Made by a program: the position numbers and the translations under genes. From Spirochaetota bacterium (GTDB lineage Bacteria; Spirochaetota; UBA6919; CBDBPB01), in NCBI GenBank assembly GCA_965208615.1, contig CBDBPB010000001.1, positions 1-64,000 on the forward strand: DNA of 64,000 bases. The letters run 5' to 3'. The notes under the pieces were generated by a model, which worked only from the letters and a program-made list of their open reading frames with translations, was not told the DNA's origin and ran no database searches. Positions 2,067 through 52,637 of this stretch are shown here, in pieces (the first letter of the stretch is position 1; each line of letters starts with the position of its first letter).

Positions 2067-2960
2067 CTATTTTTTATCATAAATATCTTGAGGTGTATTG
2101 TTGTTAAGTGTATTATTTTTATACACTGGTCTGGAGCCAATATCATTATATATTCCGCCTCCTTGAAAGTTAGCGGTATTATTCTCTAAATTACAAGCTT
2201 CTAACATTGGATCAGACGAATTAGTATTATACATACCTCCGCCTAAATTAGCCTCATTGTTTTTGAAAGTGCAATTTTTTAATACTGGATGAGAGTTTCT
2301 ATTAGCCATTCCTCCTCCAAACATAGCTTTATTATCCTCAAAAATACAGTCTACTAATGATGGACTAGAATTCATATTATACATTCCGCCTCCCATTGGT
2401 GAAGCCCCATTACTATTACCCTTAGTAATTGTAACACCATCTAACTTTGCTGTGCTATCTATGCCAAGAGGATGATAAAAAACATTATATACATTGTCAG
2501 AGCTATCGCCTGCTACGCCAATATCACCACTTAAGGTAGTTTTATAAAGTGTAGAGTTTTTAGACTCACCAATGTTTTGTCCAGGAAAACCACCATATAC
2601 CTCTACATTATTGCTAAGAGCAAAATGCTTATTACGATCACTACCTGAACTATGAGGCCATTTAGTAGGTTTATAAGTACCTTGAGCCACATATACCTTA
2701 ATTATTTTATTTTCAGCTGCTGCTCTTCTTTTAGCCTCATCAATACCGTCTTGAAGGTTCTTAAAAGCTTTTGTCCAGCTTGTTCCATCGCCAGAAGCTA
2801 CACCTACCTTTACAAAAACGCCTCCTAATTCAGCGGTTTGACCAGAGCTAGTAATCTGATCGTTACCCACATTAGTAACCATGTTTTTATCTTCACCGCA
2901 AAAAGTAAAAAATGAAATACTAATTAGTAAGCTAATTAGTAAATATCTATTTATTCTCAC
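2067..2960 (-). CDS. Lipoprotein with right-handed parallel beta-helix (pectin lyase-like/Pmp-like GGGMYN repeats)
   Basis: Lipobox FFTF-C; GDGTSWTKAF..LQD..; VAQGTYKP; repeated GGGMYN...F..N.A. Confidence 0.85.
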   Translation of the reverse strand: MRINRYLLISLLISISFFTFCGEDKNMVTNVGNDQITSSGQTAELGGVFVKVGVASGDGTSWTKAFKNLQDGIDEAKRRAAAENKIIKVYVAQGTYKPTKWPHSSGSDRNKHFALSNNVEVYGGFPGQNIGESKNSTLYKTTLSGDIGVAGDSSDNVYNVFYHPLGIDSTAKLDGVTITKGNSNGASPMGGGMYNMNSSPSLVDCIFEDNKAMFGGGMANRNSHPVLKNCTFKNNEANLGGGMYNTNSSDPMLEACNLENNTANFQGGGIYNDIGSRPVYKNNTLNNNTPQDIYDKK

Positions 2961-3057: not shown

Positions 3058-3104
3058 TATAAGTTAGCTTAGAATACTTTTGATTTACACTATTAGAACA
3101 ATTA
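3058..3104 (+). repeat. 47-bp dispersed intergenic repeat, copy 1
   Basis: 42/47 identical, ungapped, to 11645-11691. Confidence 0.85.
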
Positions 3105-3425
3105 GCAACACAGTACACTAAAATACCCTCCACCTCAATATTAAAAAAACTTAATAACTAAATTCATGGCTCTTGTATACTATATGGTATAAAAAATACA
3201 TTAACTTCTTAAACTTATTACTTATTCATACAAATTCATATAATAGATTTTTTAGCTTATTTTTTAAAACTGTTTTTATTATATTTATAACGCACCACTT
3301 TAAGCTATCTTTAAGTATGGATAGACTAATATAGATAAAATAGACTTATTAAATAAACAGTCTAATGATTTAATATAGTTAATACGAAAAGTGTATATAT
3401 ACAACTATATTGTGAAGCTTGTGCA

Positions 3426-10498: not shown

Positions 10499-10665
10499 TC
10501 TTCAAAAACAAGTTAAACCTATAGGTTTAATTCTAAATCTGAAAGCCTTATTGCCCGGCTAACCTAAAATAAATAATGATAATATCTTTTAATTTCTTAT
10601 ATTTTAATTAGTTTTAGTCTAAAACTAATTTTTTATAAAAACCTATTATTGAAGGTAAGTATATT

Positions 10666-11146
10666 ATTATCAAATGTTCTAGTAGGTTATAGTAAAAGCG
10701 TTATAGGTTTATCAATTTTTATAGATATAAACTGTTCTATTATTTTTAATTCACGTAGAAAATTACATATAAAGTCAATATAGAATATTCCGATAATCCG
10801 CTCTATACCTTTATGGAAAAGCAAATTCGTTATCACTTAATAAAGGTCCATAATTCTTAGTCTCAGTAAGGGATTCTTAATAGCTCTCGAAGTGATGACT
10901 ACTTGCATAAAAAGTGATATTTTGTGTTCATTACTAAAGTATTTAAGCAGCACTTAAAGAGCATAAAGGGATAACCTGCTTGATACAAGAAAATAGCTTT
11001 TCCATAAATATTTTAACTTTCCTGTTCCATAAAGAGATCTAAAATTCACTTCCCTTTACGTTATATGTCTTGCCTTTTTACCTTGTATGACTAGTCATAA
11101 CTCTATCATAAAATGATAACTAAATTATTAAATAATATCACTTTAA
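10666..11146 (-). ncRNA. Candidate structured RNA / non-coding dispersed element, copy A
   Basis: Reverse complement is ~90% identical without gaps to 42705-43185. No intact long ORF; helices are conserved between copies. The repeat is certain; the RNA call and strand are inference. Confidence 0.5.
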
Positions 11147-11454
11147 ATAACCTAATATCAAAAGAAAAATTATGCCGCCTTAACATTAACAAAAAAAAAT
11201 AAATATACCTTACTATCCCTAACTCAAAATCTGAACCTACATGTTTATATCTATATCTATTGTCAACAACCTAAACTTGATGAACTGACTGTTATCCTCT
11301 AAATAACCTAATATCAAAAGAAAAATTATGCCGCCTTAACATTAACAAAAAAAAATAAATATACCTTACTATCCCTAACTCAAAATCTGAACCTACATGT
11401 TTATATCTATATCTATTGTCAACAACCTAAACTTGATGAACTGACTGTTATCCT
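11144..11454 (-). repeat. 2 x 156-bp tandem repeat whose core is shared with the 201-bp array
   Basis: 11144-11298 is identical to 11300-11454; minus-strand core GTTGACAAT..ATATAAACATGTAGGTT.AGA.TTTGAGTTAGGG. Confidence 0.95.
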
Positions 11455-11644
11455 TCGAATTATAAACATTATAAATAACCCCCCTTCCCCTACTTTTTCC
11501 TCTTTAAAACTAGCCAAAAACGTTATTCTTAAAAATTGCCGTATTATCTAAAACCCGCTTGCTATTAACTCTAACTTTTAGATGAAAAATTATTATAACA
11601 TAATTCCTAAATAAATCTTATCTGTATTTTTTAAGTTTTAGATA

Positions 11645-11691
11645 TATAAGTTAGCTTAGAATATTTTTTATCTGCACTGTTAGAACAATTA
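11645..11691 (+). repeat. 47-bp dispersed intergenic repeat, copy 2
   Basis: 42/47 identical to 3058-3104. Confidence 0.85.
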
Positions 11692-11753
11692 ATAAAAACC
11701 TGTTAACAAGTTTTATATACTTTTATTATTTTTCATATAGAATGGAGATCAAA

Positions 11754-12671
11754 ATGAAGAAGTTAACAAACTTAATATTATTATTTATTCTACTGTCTTT
11801 TTCAGTCATCACTTTTACAAGCTGTGGGGATAAAAATCCTATTAATAATATATCTGGCACTGGTAAACCATGTAAAGGCAACTGGCTTGCGTTATCTGGC
11901 AATGGGATAGCTAAATCTGTTGATGGAATAAATTGGATAGAATGTAATGTTACTATTACTACTAAATTTTCTCAGCCCAGACCCATATTATATATCAAGG
12001 GTATATGGGTTACTATTAAAGTAAATCCTAATACTATCCTAACTTCACCTGACGGGATTACTTGGACTAAAAAAGAAGTTAGTGATAATAATGAGGCTAT
12101 TAACTCAATAGCTTATGGTAATAATAAGTTCGTTGCTGTGGGAGATGGTGGTACCATCCTAACTTCGGATGCCGGTGAAACCTGGACAAAACAAATAATT
12201 GAAGTAGATAATAATCTTAGATCAGTAGCTTATGGTAATAATAAGTTCGTTGCTGTGGGAGAGAAAGGTACTATCCTAACTACAATTGACGGTACAACAT
12301 GGGGAAAAATAAGTGAAGTAAATAATACTCTTAGATCAGTAGCTTATGGCAATAATCAGTGGATTGTTGGAGGACACCACTATACTAATACGGCTGATCC
12401 TACCCCCCCTACTGGGAAAACTAATGGTGCAATAATTTTAACATCAAATGACGGTACAACATGGAAGAAAAAATATATCTATAGAGACAATAATTTTGAT
12501 TTTATAATAGAACGACTGGTTAATGTTCGTAACACATGGGTTAGTACAATAGATAAAGGGATATCTGATACTGAAAGACCAAAGATTATTGTCACTTCAT
12601 CTAATAATGGACTTGATTGGGAATTAAAAGATACGACTGTACCCTTTTTGGCAATTGGGTATAAAAAGTAG
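11754..12671 (+). CDS. Lipoprotein with BNR/Asp-box beta-propeller repeats
   Basis: Lipobox TFTS-C; repeated AYGNNKFVAVG..GTILTS.DG.TW; GGAG RBS before ATG 11754. Confidence 0.85.
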   Translation: MKKLTNLILLFILLSFSVITFTSCGDKNPINNISGTGKPCKGNWLALSGNGIAKSVDGINWIECNVTITTKFSQPRPILYIKGIWVTIKVNPNTILTSPDGITWTKKEVSDNNEAINSIAYGNNKFVAVGDGGTILTSDAGETWTKQIIEVDNNLRSVAYGNNKFVAVGEKGTILTTIDGTTWGKISEVNNTLRSVAYGNNQWIVGGHHYTNTADPTPPTGKTNGAIILTSNDGTTWKKKYIYRDNNFDFIIERLVNVRNTWVSTIDKGISDTERPKIIVTSSNNGLDWELKDTTVPFLAIGYKK

Positions 12672-41188: not shown

Positions 41189-41506
41189 TTAGCTTTCCCA
41201 GTTATAAATTAGTCTTTCTACTGGTTTTCCATTTTGCATATGACTTTCCACAATTTCTTCTACATCTTTTACTGTTACTTCTTTGTACCACGTAGCCTCA
41301 GGATAAACAACTATAGAGGGACCACTACTGCATGGGCCCATACATGCAGTTGCAGTTACGGATACTTCTCCATATAGATTTCTTTTTTCCATTTCTTCTA
41401 CCAGTTTAACATAAATGTCTTGTGATCTACCCTGACCACAAGATGGTTTAGTCATTGGAGGACGAGTAGTTGTGCAGACAAAAAAATGTTTTTTAAAGTG
41501 GCTCAT
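41189..41506 (-). CDS. Thioredoxin-like [2Fe-2S] ferredoxin
   Basis: HFFVC..C..CMGPC..GP..VVYPE..WY; AAAGGAG RBS before MSHF. Confidence 0.92.
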   Translation of the reverse strand: MSHFKKHFFVCTTTRPPMTKPSCGQGRSQDIYVKLVEEMEKRNLYGEVSVTATACMGPCSSGPSIVVYPEATWYKEVTVKDVEEIVESHMQNGKPVERLIYNWES

Positions 41507-41786
41507 AGGTTCTCCTTTAATATTATCAGCAGACATTAAAAATATAATAACCCTTTAAAAAGTTGTAATACTATTTATATCCTAAAAAGTAATATTATTT
41601 TAATAAAGGTTTACGATTTACATTAGTTTAAATTATACTAACCTAATATAGATTAAAGAGTTAACTTTAGTTTTACTAAACTGTTAAGAAAATTAGCTAT
41701 ATTAGTATATATAAATCTAGTTAAATATGCAAGAAAGTCAACTTTTATTATTAATAAAAACTTTTAACTCTAAGACAAAAAGGCTC

Positions 41787-42693
41787 CTGATGAAGGTAAA
41801 AAGGTTATGAAAGAGGTTTTTGACAATGGGGATAAATATAAACATGTAGGTTTAGACTTTGAGTTAGGGCTGGTAAATATATTTATTTGTTACTAATTGT
41901 TTTAGTAGTGTAGAGCAAAGGTACTCTAAGGTAATTTATCTTTTTTAAAACTTAAAAAACACAGATTATGAAGTTATAGAAAGTGTTCTGATGAAGGTAA
42001 AAAGGTTATGAAAGAGGTTTTTGACAATGGGGATAAATATAAACATGTAGGTTTAGACTTTGAGTTAGGGCTGGTAAATATATTTATTTGTTACTAATTG
42101 TTTTAGTAATGTAGATAAAAGGTACTCTAAGGTAATTTATCTTTTTTAAAACTTAAAAAACACAGATTATGAAGTTATAGAAAGTGTTCTGATGAAGGTA
42201 AAAAGGTTATGAAAGAGGTTTTTGACAATGGGGATAAATATAAACATGTAGGTTTAGACTTTGAGTTAGGGCTGATAAGCATATTTATTTGTTACTAATT
42301 GTTTTAGTAGTGTAGATAAAAGGTACTCTAAGGTAGTTTATCTTTTTTTAAAACTTAAAAAACACAGATTATGAAGTTATAGAAAGTGTTCTGATGAAGG
42401 TAAAAAGGTTATGAAAGAGGTTTTTGACAATGGGGATAAATATAAACATGTAGGTTTAGACTTTGAGTTAGGGCTGGTAAATATATTTATTTGTTACTAA
42501 TTGTTTTAGTAGTGTAGATAAAAGGTACTCTAAGGTAATTTATCTTTTTTAAAACTTAAAAAACACAGATTATGAAGTTATAGAAAGTGTTCTGATGAAG
42601 GTAAAAAGGTTATGAAAGAGGTTTTTGACAATGGGGATAAATATAAACATGTAGGTTTAGACTTTGAGTTAGGGCTGGTAAATATATTTATTT
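41787..42693 (+). repeat. Tandem array of 4.5 x 201-bp units
   Basis: Units start at 41787, 41988, 42189, 42391 and 42592; few substitutions and one extra T. Confidence 0.97.
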
Positions 42694-42704
42694 TTTTGTT
42701 AAGG

Positions 42705-43185
42705 TTAAAGGGATATTATTTAATAGTTTAGTTATCATTTTATGATAGAATTATGGATAGTCATACAAGGTAAAAAGGCAAGACATATAACGTAAAGGGA
42801 AGTGAATTCCAGATTTCTTTGTGGAACAGGAAAATTAAAATATTCATGGAAAAGTTATTTCCTTGTGTCAAGCAGGTTATCCCTTTATGCTCTTTAAGTG
42901 CTGCTTAAATGCCTTAGCAATGAACACAAAATATCACTTTTTATGCAAGTAGTCATCACTACGAGAGCTATTAAGAATCCCTTGCTGAGACTAAGGATTA
43001 TAGACCTTTATTAAGTGTTAACGGATTTATTGTTCTATAAAAGGATAGAGCGGATTATTGGAATATTCTATATTGACTTTATGTGTATATTTCTATGGGA
43101 ATTAAAAATAATAGAACAGCTTATACCTATAAAAATTGATTAACTTAGAACGTTTTTACAATAAACTACTAAAACATTTGATAAC
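42705..43185 (+). ncRNA. Candidate structured RNA / non-coding dispersed element, copy B
   Basis: Inverted homologue of 10666-11146; helix CGTAAAGGGA(42791-42800)/TCCCTTTATG(42880-42889) is invariant between copies. Confidence 0.5.
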
Positions 43186-43351
43186 AAAATGCCCGATAGA
43201 ATGCTTTTTGTTATATTTGCTAAAACGTTTGTTAACAAGTTAGTCCAAAAAAGGAAAAAAAAAAGAAAGAACAAAAATATTGAGTTAACTTCTGATATGC
43301 TTAATGAAGCTACAATATGGATAGAAGGTTTAGATAAAATTCATAGACCTA

Positions 43352-46300
43352 TTATTTGCCTATACTGCCTTCAACCACACTAACTAAACTATCAAACCTA
43401 TCATTAAATAGACTAATCTGACCCGATATTTGTGTCATTGCATCACCCTCTTTAAGCTTACCTAATGCCTTGCCTTTTTTATAAGTAGACCGAATATAGC
43501 TAAGCCTTTCAGCCTCATCTTGACTTAGCCAGCCAATAAGCTCTTTAAACCTAAGAAGGTTAAACTCAGCTCCAGTAGTAAGAAGTTGCGACTCATCAGT
43601 ATAGTGATTCATAATCAACTGATTAAGCTCCTCTTCATTCATAATAGGAACTACTTTTTCAGCCATCTTATTCATATTACGATAAGATCCTTGAAGTAGA
43701 AAGTTAGGCTCAGTTCTATAATCATCATCTTGAGCGGCAGAATATATGTATTGCTGATTAACTTTTAGTATAACATCTTGGATGACCAACAGCTTTTTAA
43801 AAACATTAACAAACTCTTTAACCTCTTCCATGGAATAGCCTTTTTCAAACTGAATACCTTCTGAACTATTAGTTTTGGCTATTTTAATCATTTCATAAAT
43901 ATCATGTTGACTACGAGATGCTAGCTTATTTAGTACAGTGTTGGATGTTAAACAATTCTCAAGATAAGATAAGTTAAAAACCTCTGCATTACCACCAATA
44001 ATATCCCCCAGATTATATGTATCAGCACGGTTAGCAAGCATATCAGGTACTCTAAACTTCTCACCACTTTCTGTATAAGGGTTGCCAGCCATAACAACAG
44101 CTACTTTCTTACCCCTAAGATCATAGGTTTTAGTTCTACCGTTATAAACTCCTTCAATCTTACGCTGAGCATCACACAAAGAGATAAACTTCTGTAAAAA
44201 CTCTGGATTACAATGTTGAATATCATCCAAATATATCATCACATTATTAGCCATCTCAAAAGCAAGGTTAAGCTTTTCAACCTCCTCTCTGGCAGTGGCA
44301 TTAACCGCCTCATCAGGATCAAGAGAACTAACCTGATTACCAATGGCTGGACCATTGATCTTCATAAAAATAATACCCAAACGATTACTAATATATTCCA
44401 TAAGAGTTGTCTTGCCATAACCCGGTGGAGAGATAAGCATAAGAAGTCCCATAAGGTCAGTACGTTTAGCTCCTCCAAAGGCTCCCATTTGCTTGGCAAG
44501 GTTAGTGCCAATTAGAGGTATATAAATTGAGTCAATCAGCCTATTCCGTACAAAAGAACTCATCACCTTAGGCTTAAACTCATTAAGACGCATATCTTCT
44601 TTTTTTGCTTCAGTTAGTTTTCTCTTCAGCTGAACATAGGCTTTATAGCTAGGGACTGACTCCAAATAAAAACTATTCAACCTAATTATAAAATCACTAA
44701 TATCAAGCTTTAGTGTGTGTCCATCAACTCTTGAATGCTGACCTATTATCCCATTAATTGTACAAATGGTATTAACAGGTTTAACAAGGCTTTTATCCAC
44801 AGTCTTTCGTGTTAAAAGGCTAATAGCCTCAATTAAGAAGTTATTTTTAGAGTGATTGTTCTGTTTTTCGTTATCATTATATTTAACAAAATGGAATAAC
44901 CAATCTTGGATTATAAATAGTTTACTTTCCAAGTCTGAGCCAACTGCCTTAATGGATTCAATAAACTTTTTGCTTGGGTCTTTCTTTTTCAAAAACTTTA
45001 TAAATCCAGCATAAATATCATAAGCATACTTAGTTATAGGAAATAAGTCTGACCCATCTTTTAACTTCTCTAAAAGAAAGTCTGGTATTTGTTTGAGATA
45101 GAGATCATTTACTGGCCAGGATAACTCACTAAAAAAGCTATCCACCATTACTCTAAGCTGTTTAGCGTATTCTTGGTGATAGTCCTGACTATCGGTTAAA
45201 GAATTTAAATAGCCAAAAGACTTAATCTTTTCTCTTAGACAAGTCTTATCCTCAGACTCAGGTGAATAATACCAAAAGATAGCTCCATAAGCTCTTGTGG
45301 ATGGGTGAAACCTAAGAATACCTGCCTCTTGTAAAACAGGATGGATAGTGGTTAATATCTTACAGGCATCCTCATCATGGACTCCTTTTTCATAGCCCTC
45401 ATCATATAGCCCTGACATAAAATCCCTAATGGTTTGTAATAATCTAGAGGGATTAGCAATCTGTTCTTTTAGTTCATTCTTTGATATAGGCTTATTCTCT
45501 GTTTCTATGCTGGTTAAGAATTTATAAGCCAAATATTCAGCACGATAAATACTTTTTGTCTCACTTGGCCATTCTTGTTGCCAAAACCTTTTAGTATTAT
45601 TAAAATCATTATCCTTAATCTTTTCAAAGAACTCAGTCCCAGTAAGATGGTAATACATAGACCCATTACGGTTTACAGTAGTAAGATCAAAAGCTTGTGT
45701 GTTAACAGTAAACTTATGGGAGCCAAAGGTAATTATATTACCTCCGTGCTCAAAAAGGTCTAAACGATCTTTTAGCTGTCTTGCACCGTCCTGTTGTAGG
45801 CTTTTTAGCCTACTAACAACCTCTTCAGACTTAACACTATCCCCAAGATCAAAAAGCTGTTTAACTATATCTTTAACCTTAGCTATCATCATATCAGAGG
45901 CAAAATAGCCGTTTAACTCATCAATGGACTTTAAGGTTTTAGTCCTATTGGATATACCCTTAAGAATACGATCAGCAGAGTTCCAAAGGGATATGGTCTT
46001 ACGATTTAGGCTTTCTTGTAATTGAACCTTACGATTGTCAAAGGCACTATATACCTCATTACGTTTTTCAGTTAGCTTTTCAATGTAGTCCTCAAAGTCA
46101 GAAAACTTACCTTCTAAGCTCTCAATCTGAACCATGACCTTAGTAAGAAGCTCTTCACATTTTTCAACGGTATCAGCCTGATCAATAAAGTTAGTCACCG
46201 ACTGATTAATAAGTTTAAACTGAGAAGAGAACTCAGCCTTAGCCTCATTAGAAAAAAGAGCCTTATAATGCTTTTTATGGATCGCCTTAACCTGATTAAT

Positions 46301-48298
46301 CCTAATATATACATTGGATATATTATCAATGATCTGCGAAGTTTGAGTTGAGTCCTCAATCTTAAGGCTGTTAGTTATATCGGTCAGAAGGTCAACACCA
46401 TTATTAAGCTTATTTATCTCTTTGCTCAGCTTTTTAATTTCGGTTACCTTAGAAAGACTAGGAATAGCCTCTTCAAACTTTTTAAGCTTTTCAAAAAAAG
46501 GAGATAAAGCATGTTTTTCCAAAAGAAAATTAACACAGTTTTGTGATATCTTATCATAGCTATCCCCAACTAATTTTTCAATCTCATCAACCCTATTTAC
46601 CTCAACATACCTAAGGTCTTTTAGGGATATAATATGCCCTCTTTGTATTTGAAGCTTGGTTAAGGAATCAACATACTCATCTACAACTAAAAACTTGGCA
46701 TTTTTTATATTGTCGATTAGTTTATTAGTGTCCTCTTCAGCAGAAGATAGGCTCTTTTCAGTGTTTTCTCTTATGGTAACTACTTTTTCGTATTCATCAA
46801 TAGCATCATTAGCAGTAGTTAATATATCTAGTAATATATCCTTAGGAGCAAAAGCCTCTTTATGATCCAGCCAAAAGTGAAGATCAATGGCATTAGTAAC
46901 CTCTTTTGCAATCTGATGATAAATCCCTAAATAAACCTCTGACTTCTGTAAAAGATTATATATACCCCTAAGGTCGGCTATTCCTTTTACCAATTCTTTA
47001 TTCCCAATCTTAGATAAGTGAGAACTACTATCAGCAGTTATTAGGGAAAAATCTTTAACAAAAGGAGTCTGCCATATTTGTATAGCATGACTCTTTTTAG
47101 AATCATTATCCCCCTTGAAGATAACCATTTTCCCGTTGTCATAAATAGAGAAACCATGACATAATAAAGGATTATCCACCTTTTTGCTAATGATGTTATA
47201 TTGGAGTAATATATATTCCCCAAACTCCTCGTTGTAAAAGATATATAAATAGTCCTCCCCATTGGGAGAGATAATTAACTTAAGAAAACTCATATCACTA
47301 ACATCAAGGCTAAAAGCTTTATAGTCCCCACTTTTAAGATAATACCCTTTTGGGAATATTAAGCCATCATCCTCAGGAAGACGAATAGCACATTGTCTAA
47401 TATCATCAACCCTAACCACTTTTTGGGTCTTCTCGTTAAATATAAAATAACGGTACTCCTTTTCCTGATAAGGCAAAATCTTTAATAAAATTATATGCCC
47501 CATTATAGAGTAGTAAATATCAGCATCATCCAAAGTTTGCTCTTTATGAATAACCTCTTCAGAATATATACCATTACCATCCTCAGTGTTATCCTCAACT
47601 TTAATGGTAATATCCCCCCCAACACTCTCTACAAAAACCTTATCCTCAATAGAGACATGAGGAAAACGACCATATATATTTTGCTCTCTAGTGGTTTTTA
47701 TCCATTCAAAGTCAATCTGTGGTGGATAAGAATAGCCCTTTGCCGATCTACTACCAGCATAAGTTAAAGTGTTATCCTGATTGACCTGCCACGTGAATAT
47801 TCTAATATCACTAGCGGACTTACCAGTCTGAAAGATCATAAAAAGATTAGCGTCTTTCTCAATAAACGTATTAAACGAAGTATCACGGTAATATTGGTAT
47901 AATCCATGAAAGTCTTTTATAAAGTTCTGATCGTTTAGTAAGTTATTCTCAAGGATACTAAAACTGTTATCCTTCATCTCATACAGACTAAATACATCAG
48001 AGACCTTCATCTCTTTCTTTAAACCAATAAAAACATTATATCCAAAAAGAAGCTTATTCCCAAGAGAAAACATATCTCTTGCTACACAGGTGTTATCAGT
48101 AATTATACGATCAGTAGCAATAATCTTATTCTCAAGAACACCAAAAGCCTCTTTTCTTTTTTCATTAAGTTTGTTAACCCTCTCAAAAAGCTGATTGCTA
48201 TAAGCCAAAAGCCTTTTTCGTATTATCTCATAAGCCCCACTCTCAAGGGTTTGTTCATCAGTAGTCTCATCTTGATTTAATATATTTTGTTTAGCCAT
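43352..48298 (-). CDS. Giant AAA+ ATPase (so-called 'DNA repair ATPase', DUF3686-type)
   Basis: GAYEIIRKRL N-terminus; ISPPGYGKTTLMEY Walker A; YLDDIQH Walker B; LQGSYRNMNK. Confidence 0.9.
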   Translation of the reverse strand: MAKQNILNQDETTDEQTLESGAYEIIRKRLLAYSNQLFERVNKLNEKRKEAFGVLENKIIATDRIITDNTCVARDMFSLGNKLLFGYNVFIGLKKEMKVSDVFSLYEMKDNSFSILENNLLNDQNFIKDFHGLYQYYRDTSFNTFIEKDANLFMIFQTGKSASDIRIFTWQVNQDNTLTYAGSRSAKGYSYPPQIDFEWIKTTREQNIYGRFPHVSIEDKVFVESVGGDITIKVEDNTEDGNGIYSEEVIHKEQTLDDADIYYSIMGHIILLKILPYQEKEYRYFIFNEKTQKVVRVDDIRQCAIRLPEDDGLIFPKGYYLKSGDYKAFSLDVSDMSFLKLIISPNGEDYLYIFYNEEFGEYILLQYNIISKKVDNPLLCHGFSIYDNGKMVIFKGDNDSKKSHAIQIWQTPFVKDFSLITADSSSHLSKIGNKELVKGIADLRGIYNLLQKSEVYLGIYHQIAKEVTNAIDLHFWLDHKEAFAPKDILLDILTTANDAIDEYEKVVTIRENTEKSLSSAEEDTNKLIDNIKNAKFLVVDEYVDSLTKLQIQRGHIISLKDLRYVEVNRVDEIEKLVGDSYDKISQNCVNFLLEKHALSPFFEKLKKFEEAIPSLSKVTEIKKLSKEINKLNNGVDLLTDITNSLKIEDSTQTSQIIDNISNVYIRINQVKAIHKKHYKALFSNEAKAEFSSQFKLINQSVTNFIDQADTVEKCEELLTKVMVQIESLEGKFSDFEDYIEKLTEKRNEVYSAFDNRKVQLQESLNRKTISLWNSADRILKGISNRTKTLKSIDELNGYFASDMMIAKVKDIVKQLFDLGDSVKSEEVVSRLKSLQQDGARQLKDRLDLFEHGGNIITFGSHKFTVNTQAFDLTTVNRNGSMYYHLTGTEFFEKIKDNDFNNTKRFWQQEWPSETKSIYRAEYLAYKFLTSIETENKPISKNELKEQIANPSRLLQTIRDFMSGLYDEGYEKGVHDEDACKILTTIHPVLQEAGILRFHPSTRAYGAIFWYYSPESEDKTCLREKIKSFGYLNSLTDSQDYHQEYAKQLRVMVDSFFSELSWPVNDLYLKQIPDFLLEKLKDGSDLFPITKYAYDIYAGFIKFLKKKDPSKKFIESIKAVGSDLESKLFIIQDWLFHFVKYNDNEKQNNHSKNNFLIEAISLLTRKTVDKSLVKPVNTICTINGIIGQHSRVDGHTLKLDISDFIIRLNSFYLESVPSYKAYVQLKRKLTEAKKEDMRLNEFKPKVMSSFVRNRLIDSIYIPLIGTNLAKQMGAFGGAKRTDLMGLLMLISPPGYGKTTLMEYISNRLGIIFMKINGPAIGNQVSSLDPDEAVNATAREEVEKLNLAFEMANNVMIYLDDIQHCNPEFLQKFISLCDAQRKIEGVYNGRTKTYDLRGKKVAVVMAGNPYTESGEKFRVPDMLANRADTYNLGDIIGGNAEVFNLSYLENCLTSNTVLNKLASRSQHDIYEMIKIAKTNSSEGIQFEKGYSMEEVKEFVNVFKKLLVIQDVILKVNQQYIYSAAQDDDYRTEPNFLLQGSYRNMNKMAEKVVPIMNEEELNQLIMNHYTDESQLLTTGAEFNLLRFKELIGWLSQDEAERLSYIRSTYKKGKALGKLKEGDAMTQISGQISLFNDRFDSLVSVVEGSIGK

Positions 48299-51980: not shown

Positions 51981-52637
51981 TTAATCTATATCATTAATAA
52001 TTAGGCGAGTTTCGTCTTGAGATATTACACGACGAATTGCCTCATCATTAAGTTGACCCTTTTTCTGTTTAGTATTTTCAGTATTTTTCTGTTTAGTATT
52101 TTCAGTATTTTTCTGTTTAGTATTTTCAGTATTTTTCTGTTTAGTATTTTCAGTATTTTTCTGTTTAGTATTTTCAGTTTTAACATTATTTGATGACTTA
52201 TTAGCGAGACGTTGTTGAACATTATTTCTTTTTATAGTATTTCTTTTTATTTTGGTCTTATATAGTTTAGTTTTATATAGAGTTGAAGATTTTATACTTT
52301 TGGGTATATTATTGTTTTGAATAGGTTGTTCTTCCTTATTAGTAAGATTATCATTATTAGGAAGGTTATCATTTTTTATAATTATTTGATTATTTTTTTC
52401 ATTATTTAGTTTATCTGTATTTTCTTTGTTTACGACTACGTTATTAGTCTCAATTAATTTTTTAGATTTATTAGAACTTTCACTACTAAGATCGCCTATT
52501 TTATCATAATCATAAGAATAAATATACTCTAAGTAACTACGTATACTAACAATAGATAATATTATAATAGCTAAAAATAGTATTACTCTTTTATAAGGCG
52601 ACCTTTTTTTAATAGGTTTTGTAAAAAGACCACTCAT
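51981..52637 (-). CDS. Membrane-anchored low-complexity protein
   Basis: N-terminal TM helix; N/K-rich linker; TENTKQK repeats. Confidence 0.7.
   Translation of the reverse strand: MSGLFTKPIKKRSPYKRVILFLAIIILSIVSIRSYLEYIYSYDYDKIGDLSSESSNKSKKLIETNNVVVNKENTDKLNNEKNNQIIIKNDNLPNNDNLTNKEEQPIQNNNIPKSIKSSTLYKTKLYKTKIKRNTIKRNNVQQRLANKSSNNVKTENTKQKNTENTKQKNTENTKQKNTENTKQKNTENTKQKKGQLNDEAIRRVISQDETRLIINDID
52061..52178 (-). repeat. In-frame 24-bp VNTR, ~5 copies
   Basis: TTTTCTGTTTAGTATTTTCAGTAT repeated; encodes NTENTKQK. Confidence 0.95.

Follow-up and report, generated by a model that had tools for sequence, protein, structure and literature searches.

The subject of this analysis is a 64,000-nucleotide stretch of DNA, referred to below as the window, which forms the start of contig C1 in the genome assembly of a Spirochaetota bacterium, and in which arrays of non-coding tandem repeats run directly into a conserved element, termed E. 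The arrangement is present at two loci. At locus B, a 201-bp unit is repeated 4.5 times on the + strand (41787-42693; 98% matches by Tandem Repeats Finder, TRF), and at locus A, in the inverted orientation, a 156-bp unit is repeated 2.0 times on the - strand (11136-11454; also 98% matches). The element that follows the locus B array (42694-43190, +) aligns with 11146-10661 (-) at ~90% identity, and at both loci a common core of ~75 bp lies immediately upstream of it. An earlier note on this DNA, made from its letters alone, had described the layout in these terms and had added that no transposase, cas or reverse transcriptase (RT) gene was adjacent to either locus, and both descriptions proved accurate. 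Its statement that the system was “present twice” is true within the window, but BLAST of E found ~40 copies in the genome (2,456,614 bp in 9 contigs, 31% G+C, 99.4% complete), to which the genome-wide counts below refer.

Locus B was split into modules and each of these was mapped on the genome, which revealed an order common to the copies: M3 - M4 - M1 - M2 - Ea - Eb - variable tail - optional T. The 201-bp unit is composed of M1-M2-M3-M4, and the first unit of the array opens with M1-M2 (41787-41889, +), the “core”, followed by M3 (41888-41953, +), a left terminal repeat that was recognized by its inverted counterpart and by end alignment, starts with TGTTACTAATTGTTTTAGTAG, and recurs at 42089, 42290 and 42492. 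The array is succeeded by the 394-nt E core, Ea+Eb (42694-43087, +), which is present in all copies and is, in alignments of the ~40 genomic copies, the best-conserved non-coding part of the family. The tail beyond the core has two forms, “short” and “long” (Ec), and both window loci have the long one, which at locus B (43088-43186, +) supplies an inner right terminus, ...CTACTAAAACATTTGATAACA. The outer right terminus, ...AAAACGTTTGTTAACA, is that of T (43187-43237, +), a module of about 51-52 nt that follows the tail in 12 E loci and occurs solo at 7 places, one of these being where a second, diverged prophage-like region ends. At locus B, the repeated DNA extends from ~41780 to 43237/43238, a 51-bp end module beyond its earlier extent, and the composite as a whole measures ~0.7-1.8 kb, above the usual size (under ~600 bp) of MITEs (miniature inverted-repeat transposable elements).

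Locus A has its own Ec tail (10665-10763, -), with a right terminus that reads TATTATCAAATGTTCTAGTAG on the + strand, an E core (10764-11146, -) delimited by alignment, the genomic copies and the module map, and an array in which the M2 core is present and M3 is absent. It also extends further than had been noted, to 11697, through the fossil 3' tail of a surface-protein gene, which is less decayed and points the same way as E (11447-11566, -), and a small foldback element (11590-11697, -), the outer arm of which (11632-11697) is an M3-like left end of the composite.

A dispersed family and the ends of a resident prophage

The 497-nt E gave 64 BLAST matches in the genome, 40 of them at least 300 nt long, with 81-98% identity and distributed over six of the nine contigs. 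The genes that flank E loci are diverse, and 45 loci sorted by intergenic class (14 divergent, 27 tandem and 4 convergent) are split much like the genome as a whole (239, 411 and 46, respectively), with E in one orientation in 16 tandem intergenic regions and in the other in 11. Nothing in this placement points to selection for a role as promoter or leader, and it is what a selfish insert would be expected to show. An excess of divergent upstream genes (31 of 46 loci) was considered and rejected, as the genome's mix of intergenic classes accounts for it. The BLASTN comparison proposed in the earlier note thus yielded, on the genome side, ~40 copies and arrays to the left of E at 18 loci, but E was found in none of 40 relatives, the nearest being two genomes of the same order. 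Scans of genome and metagenome collections with two exact patterns also returned no matches, although exact patterns would miss diverged relatives. In addition to the large composites, there are at least six copies of a 120-142-bp foldback element with the same ends (C4:380264-381231, C4:374061-374201, C4:586375-586506, C2:90668-90789, C1:261865-262006 and C7:336244-336378). Two of these lie shortly downstream of surface-protein genes.

The boundaries of the large copies are sharp. At locus B, terminal inverted repeats of 58 nt (41886-41943 and 43131-43188) are 72% complementary, M3 starting with TGTTACTAATTGTT(C/T)TAGTAG and the tail ending in the inverted copy, ...CTACTA(A/G)AACATTTGATAACA, such that 17 of the outer 21 positions agree between M3 and the Ec tail. 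TGTTA... marks the left limit of the similarity between copies at many loci and ...TAACA the right limit, with unique DNA beyond. For example, C1:84087-84775 is 97% identical to 42504-43191 of the window, and the two diverge within ~5 bases of the terminus ...GATAACA. The element termini therefore have the form 5'-TG...CA-3', the first two bases being TA or TT in a few copies. A loose version of the end motif occurs 132 times in the genome, where ~11 would be expected from base composition, and the 59 matches outside E loci are mostly within open reading frames (ORFs) and chance-like.

A potential source of such ends was found inside a copy of E. On contig C7, this copy is split, with E positions 12-210 at C7:460376-460178 and 204-394 at C7:424829-424639 (- strand in both cases), and between the halves lies a 35,349-bp insert (C7:424829-460177) that begins TGTTA, ends TAACA, has ~50-nt inverted ends that are near-identical to each other, and is flanked on each side by the 6-bp duplication CAGCAC. 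The insert encodes a 532-aa transposase (phrog_310, E 3e-35, with a weak rve match at 7.5e-5) and a 282-aa MuB-like transposition ATPase (phrog_296, 2e-26; AAA_22), as well as GemA, a large terminase, Portal_Mu, Mu F, a tail tape measure protein and Baseplate_J, and this gene content, together with the 6-bp duplication, identifies it as a Mu/B3-type transposable prophage. According to a report on Leptospira prophages, B3/Tn552-type transposases there make a 6-bp duplication, and TG-CA ends are the rule for such transposable phages (PMC8705779). The early genes of the prophage, among them a sigma-70-family gene, read towards one of its ends.

The genome has two intact transposase genes, which are 99% identical. 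The second lies in a copy of the prophage early region (C3:10639-15823; 5.2 kb, 98.5% identical) that is without the sigma gene and without a recognisable phage end. The second, diverged prophage-like region (C7:139129-170224), patches of which are 68-92% identical to the first, has a phage-type end at 139129 and a tandem coding repeat (NNKFIAVG...GTILSS) that is also present in the lipoprotein gene at 11742-12671 of the window. The tandem repeats at C7:141.5-147.3 kb were rejected as instances of the array phenomenon, being coding repeats of an NNKFIAVG-type protein. A scan of a viral contig collection with a single transposase protein confirmed no relative.

The likeness between these prophage ends and those of the E family is clearest in T, which, taken with its three preceding bases (43184-43237), matches each prophage end at 79-80% identity over 53-54 nt. 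When prophage-end similarity was scored against 2,999 random genomic 48-mers starting with TGTTA, T reached a z of 9.4 and the Ec tails of loci B and A reached 6.3 and 3.6, respectively. The prophage ends, T, the Ec tails and M3 have a common plan, TGTTA, three variable bases, AA-N-GTTYTAR, ~24 nt and then AAACGTTCTAAG, so that each contains two boxes of the GTTYTAR / CGTTCTAAG type ~24 nt apart, and it is these paired boxes that the transposase would be predicted to bind. By way of T, then, the ends of the element match in sequence those of an autonomous element in the same host. This resemblance to a resident transposable prophage, and the origin of the array core described in the next section, go beyond what the earlier note had contained.

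Arrays and the gene-tail fossil

A TRF search of the genome for periods of at least 50 bp produced 69 tandem repeats, 45 of which overlap ORFs and are protein repeats. The association of the remaining 24, which are non-coding, with the E family is close: 18 abut the left side of E, three are within 400 bp of its right side, and only three are elsewhere. The periods are varied, i.e., 74 bp (in 15 and in 12 units), 110, 137, 144-146 (at four loci), 156, 158, 165, 169, 201, 203, 208, 222, 263 and 318 bp. Identity within an array is 84-100% (at least 93% in 16 of 18), and that between related arrays at different loci is 76-97%. Arrays were assigned to junction types according to whether a whole unit aligned across the junction of another array, which gave ~8 types, several of them common to two to five loci. 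The longest match between the 201-bp and 156-bp units takes in 51% of the latter at 85% identity; they have a common core but different junctions and are thus separate array types, and to this extent the earlier proposal that the core was amplified independently at the two loci stood. It did not extend to the family as a whole, as array types that are common to several loci must have been inherited with the element. Taken together, the ~8 types, the sharing of several of them and the high identity within arrays indicate that arrays arose several times, travel with the element and are homogenised locally. The idea that arrays always begin at the terminal TG was rejected, since the locus B array begins in M1. 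An array of a different kind lies at C2:149964-150783, where 4.7 units of 175 bp of a gene's own tail are found at most ~90 bp to the right (the tail side) of the mapped core of an E copy, which implies that host DNA beside an element end can also be amplified.

The sequence from which the array core derives could be recognized. Blastn of the array units against the last 150 nt and the downstream DNA of 12 genes for surface proteins with GGGMYN repeats matched the 144-bp units to the gene tails at 76-83% identity (E down to 1e-23) and M1-M2 of the 201-bp unit at 67-69% over 101-115 nt (E ~1e-8). All of these matches were in the orientation of E and ran ~15 nt or more past the stop codon, and M1-M2 at 41787-41889 accordingly corresponds to the last ~90 nt of coding sequence and ~15 nt of downstream DNA. 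A tblastn search of the two loci with all ORFs matched 11447-11566 (-) of locus A to C-termini of the same family (50% identity over 40 aa with E 2e-4, and 51% over 35 aa with E 8e-4). A BLASTP comparison of the 31-aa translation of M1-M2 with a real C-terminus gave no alignment, and the gene-tail reading of the 201-bp unit thus rests on the DNA matches, the better-preserved 144-bp units and the fossil at locus A. Judged from these matches, the array core is the decayed 3' tail of a surface-protein gene family. None of the 11 family genes with an intact C-terminus is followed by E, which indicates that the tail was captured once and then copied with the element.

The 12-mer AAGGTAAAAAGG that the earlier note had picked out in both array unit and element is genuinely over-represented, with seven occurrences in the window against 0.03 expected (five in the array and one in each copy of the element). 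Its positions (41793, 42767 and 11073-11084 on the - strand) fall in the gene-tail module M1 and in the E core. No similarity extending around it between M1 and E could be seen by eye, and it may be the mark of an old duplication or a site of microhomology.

Other features of the window are of a different nature. A solo M3-like end (TGTTGCTAATTGTTCTAATAG...; 3058-3110, -) is present ~100 bp upstream of a surface-protein paralogue at 2067-2960 (-). An ORF of 1,648 aa (43352-48298, -), the sequence end of which is a P-loop ATPase-like region, converges on locus B. The 117-bp repeat (2.2 units) at 12105-12360 is coding sequence (YGNNKFVAVG...) within the lipoprotein gene 11742-12671 and is unrelated to the non-coding arrays, and a perfect 24-bp repeat of 5.0 units (TTTTTCTGTTTAGTATTTTCAGTA; 52060-52178) lies in or at the edge of ORF 51981-52637 (-).

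Mobility of the family and competing explanations

Direct signs of insertion were found at two copies. The copy at C4:91067-92790 (1,724 bp), which consists of 15 M3 units of 74 bp followed by E and then T, is flanked by a 246-bp direct repeat (C4:90821-91066 and C4:92791-93036; 99.6% identical) that touches the terminal TG and CA exactly. The repeat doubles the final 246 bp of a fur-family gene, so that an intact gene and a tail ORF without a promoter result. At C7:82258-82940, the copy is bracketed by 37-bp repeats, identical at 35 of 37 positions. A duplication that abuts both termini shows that the family inserted at least once with a long target duplication, and in the length of that duplication it resembles IS1634 and IS1549 more than Mu. 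The earlier suggestion of a non-autonomous element with an expansion-prone leader was therefore well founded, given the ~40 dispersed copies, the inverted repeats, the 246-bp duplication and the arrays left of E at 18 of 46 loci.

Based on these observations, we hold with moderate confidence that the array and the 480-nt element together are one copy of a non-autonomous composite family with phage-type ends and an internal minisatellite. Each copy comprises an M3 left repeat, a captured M1-M2 gene-tail fossil, the 394-nt E core and inverted right termini, one or two in number (the Ec tail and T), the termini follow the end plan of the resident Mu/B3-like prophage (5'-TG...CA-3', with two GTTCTAAG-type boxes ~24 nt apart), and the elements would have been spread in trans by two proteins of the prophage, its 532-aa transposase (A) and its MuB-like ATPase, or by their counterparts in an ancestral relative. 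Mobilisation by the resident phage transposase is the most economical inference, if an unproven one, and the E core presumably has no cellular function. The arrays would be left-arm minisatellites that probably arose several times by slippage or template switching, were copied with the element, and were then expanded, contracted and homogenised locus by locus through unequal recombination. Repeated insertion with long duplications, or stable complexes of protein bound to the end-like repeats, may have contributed to their formation.

Several observations weigh against this account. The most serious concerns the hallmark left by Mu/B3-type transposition, a target duplication of 5-6 bp such as the prophage itself has: no such pair of flanks was found at any of the 16 loci at which both termini could be placed, which is the main weakness of a Mu-type reading, and the long flanking repeats are present at only two of 46 loci. 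Copies are also mosaic, e.g., the core of C4:92179-92790 is 99% like C4:131918-132402 while its tail follows C4:110287-110899. Recombination between copies is thus active, and it may account for part of the spread of the family, and may also have scrambled short flanks. M3 on its own is weakly like the prophage end (z 2.3, with 101 of the 2,999 controls scoring as high), and it is therefore tied to the phage only by way of the Ec tail, which it resembles at 75%. Nothing in the prophage corresponds to the E core, and a blastn search of 50,697 phage records with E plus T gave no match. In addition, array lengths are as assembled and not confirmed by reads, and the absence of the family from the other genomes and metagenomes scanned means that there was no empty site for comparison.

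Some of the same observations are what would be expected if another, unseen transposase that makes long and variable duplications had moved the elements, or if they were immobile relics spread mainly by recombination, their phage-end likeness being ancient or convergent. We regard this as unlikely, though it is the best placed of the alternatives. It draws on the fact that the only flanking duplications seen are long ones (246 bp and 37 bp), on the weak phage-likeness of M3 and on the mosaic copies. However, profile searches of this nearly complete assembly found no member of eight transposase and RT families (TnpB zinc ribbon, DDE_Tnp_1, rve at the cut-off, RVT_1, Y1_Tnp, DDE_3, Transposase_mut and IS110), and the controls for these searches gave matches in known genomes; in the case of DDE_Tnp_1 (PF01609, IS4-type DDE), the control matched 9 of 14. 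A search with PF02914 (DDE_2) carries no weight, as its control matched no genome. Only two Xer-sized tyrosine recombinases are encoded. Furthermore, convergence would hardly produce the 80% identity that T has to the prophage ends over 53 nt together with an equal spacing of the two boxes.

It is a little more doubtful still that the element is a module of the host, which would serve its variable surface-protein genes as a homology block, tunable spacer or regulator and would only appear to have phage-like ends. That the array core is the fossil of the 3' tail of this very family gives the idea some force, as does the solo end-like repeat ~100 bp upstream of another paralogue in the window. 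The family makes up only ~22 of ~2,130 ORFs, yet one of its members is the divergent upstream neighbour at eight of 46 E loci and the downstream neighbour at two more, an over-representation upstream that keeps this explanation alive for some loci. At the other 36 loci, though, no family member flanks E, and neither locus of the window has one: the upstream neighbour of locus A (11742-12671) is a lipoprotein gene of a different paralogue cluster, and that of locus B (41189-41536) matched no other flanking gene. Moreover, the lack of E downstream of the intact family genes, an orientation and intergenic class as at random, and promoter-like sites that are not enriched all speak against a host role, which would also leave unexplained the sharp TG...CA boundaries and the 246-bp flanking duplication in the fur gene.

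A variation on the favoured composite-family account, equally doubtful in our estimation, is that the elements are natural “mini-Mu” satellites, i.e., gene-less DNAs with nothing of the phage except its ends, that ride its transposase, and perhaps its left-end headful packaging, when the phage replicates. The left-arm arrays, some with 12-15 tandem end copies, would then stack transposase-binding or packaging sites, and such arrays of ends could either boost the satellite or soak up transposase and dampen the phage. A related notion, in which the copies would extend Mu-type target immunity across the chromosome, is disfavoured by the location of the prophage itself inside an E copy, with end-like sites a few hundred bp away.

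The earlier note had also inferred an unannotated family of non-coding RNAs (ncRNAs) and had offered a stack of promoters as one function for the leader, and neither was borne out. That E is a structured or processed RNA, or the guide RNA of a transposon nuclease, with a repeat leader now seems quite improbable. In its favour, the central 150 nt of E are 93-95% conserved across copies, above the flanks, and the - strand folds somewhat better than shuffled alignments, with a few hairpins that keep their pairing through G-U changes. Gene conversion between copies can, however, also give high conservation. Rfam had no match at gathering scores in the whole window, and at E <= 10 (41500-43400) returned a single chance fragment of 5.8S. 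RNAalifold on 29 copies gave -30.7 kcal/mol over ~400 columns, with compensatory change in only two of 83 predicted pairs, and against 60 column shuffles the consensus fold had a z of -0.8 on the + strand and -2.5 on the - strand, with covariation not above that of the shuffles. Promoter-like sites numbered five, where 10.8 were expected from shuffles, and there were no terminator-like sites, nor does the genome have a TnpB, IscB-type, IS110 or RT gene. Coding capacity is likewise lacking: a six-frame scan of the 29 aligned copies found no conserved gene, but recurrent stop-free stretches of 37-53 aa in overlapping frames, the longest (80 aa) being in one copy only. That E is a recognisable RNA is thus not supported, and in annotation E blocks should be treated as repeats to be masked, with no RNA gene or regulatory region called from them.

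Finally, it is very improbable that the arrays are assembly artefacts with inflated or invented copy number: although short contigs of one sequencing run end at the repeat and none spans it, the assembly has only 9 contigs, the 18 array loci in it represent 8 junction types and have unique flanks in each case, the 0-7% difference between units of one array is unlike an identical stutter, and a 188-nt contig from a second sample runs from unique left flank through M1-M2 into M3 with two differences.

Known systems

The E family consists of composite repeats restricted to one lineage, which combine ends of the phage type with a captured gene tail and a left arm that can expand. If the account that we favour is true, a temperate phage that replicates by transposition has scattered dozens of elements derived from its own ends, and free of genes, through the host genome, which would constitute a direct link between phage activity and the plasticity of that genome and a source of MITEs for which we found no precedent in print. 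A captured gene fragment is part of the elements, they can make long target duplications within genes (fur), and they account for 21 of the 24 non-coding long-period arrays of the genome, and as such they offer a natural system for asking how arrays of transposase ends, long staggered insertions and minisatellite growth are connected. If the satellite idea were correct, they would be a parasite or decoy of a transposable phage, again of a kind not found in print. A search of the open-access literature for MITEs derived from transposable phages, or for natural multi-copy derivatives of such phages, found none. Spirochaete genomes are rich in MITEs according to a 2024 survey (PMC11602168), and in a 2024 review of prokaryotic MITEs the terms “phage” and “Mu-like” have 0 occurrences (PMC10969869).

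Among known systems, the closest in their termini are the Mu/B3-like phages, which have TG...CA ends and repeated box motifs at fixed spacing within ~45 nt of each end, as does the E family, one end module of which is 80% identical to the ends of the resident prophage. In the laboratory, mini-Mu is an element without genes of its own, and the E-family element carries none either. The differences are that 5-6-bp duplications are missing from the E family, where only those of 246 bp and 37 bp are seen, and that its internal DNA is not that of a phage. Long and variable target duplications are made by IS1634 and IS1549, and E-family insertions are similarly flanked by direct repeats of tens to hundreds of bp; those two elements, however, encode an IS4-type DDE transposase, whereas the E-family elements encode nothing and the genome has no DDE_Tnp_1.

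In modular design, the family resembles the pneumococcal BOX elements (A-Bn-C) and the BIMEs of Escherichia coli, which consist of modules of 35-60 nt that form RNA or DNA hairpins, and in which one module is present in variable tandem number between fixed modules and the whole is dispersed intergenically. It differs from them in its modules of 30-400 nt, phage-type termini and gene-tail fossil. Another spirochaete precedent is the Vmp system of the relapsing-fever Borrelia, Borrelia hermsii, with its upstream and downstream homology sequences. There, too, repeated non-coding blocks lie beside a fast-evolving surface-protein family, but most E copies are not beside such genes, and neither an expression site nor silent cassettes were seen.

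The most similar overall architecture is that of BrickBuilt in Porphyromonas gingivalis, a MITE that contains a 23-nt minisatellite and is present in 19 copies, according to its description (PMC4596501). On that description, which was compared in words and not in sequence, both families are non-coding, strictly intergenic, multicopy (19 versus ~40) and of limited host range, and both have a leader and a tail with inverted-repeat ends around a tandem repeat that varies from locus to locus. In BrickBuilt, the 23-nt unit is the body of the element, whereas in the E family the units are of 74-318 bp and ~8 types and are restricted to the left arm of an element that has, in addition, a captured gene tail, a conserved core of 394 nt and the ends of a phage type.

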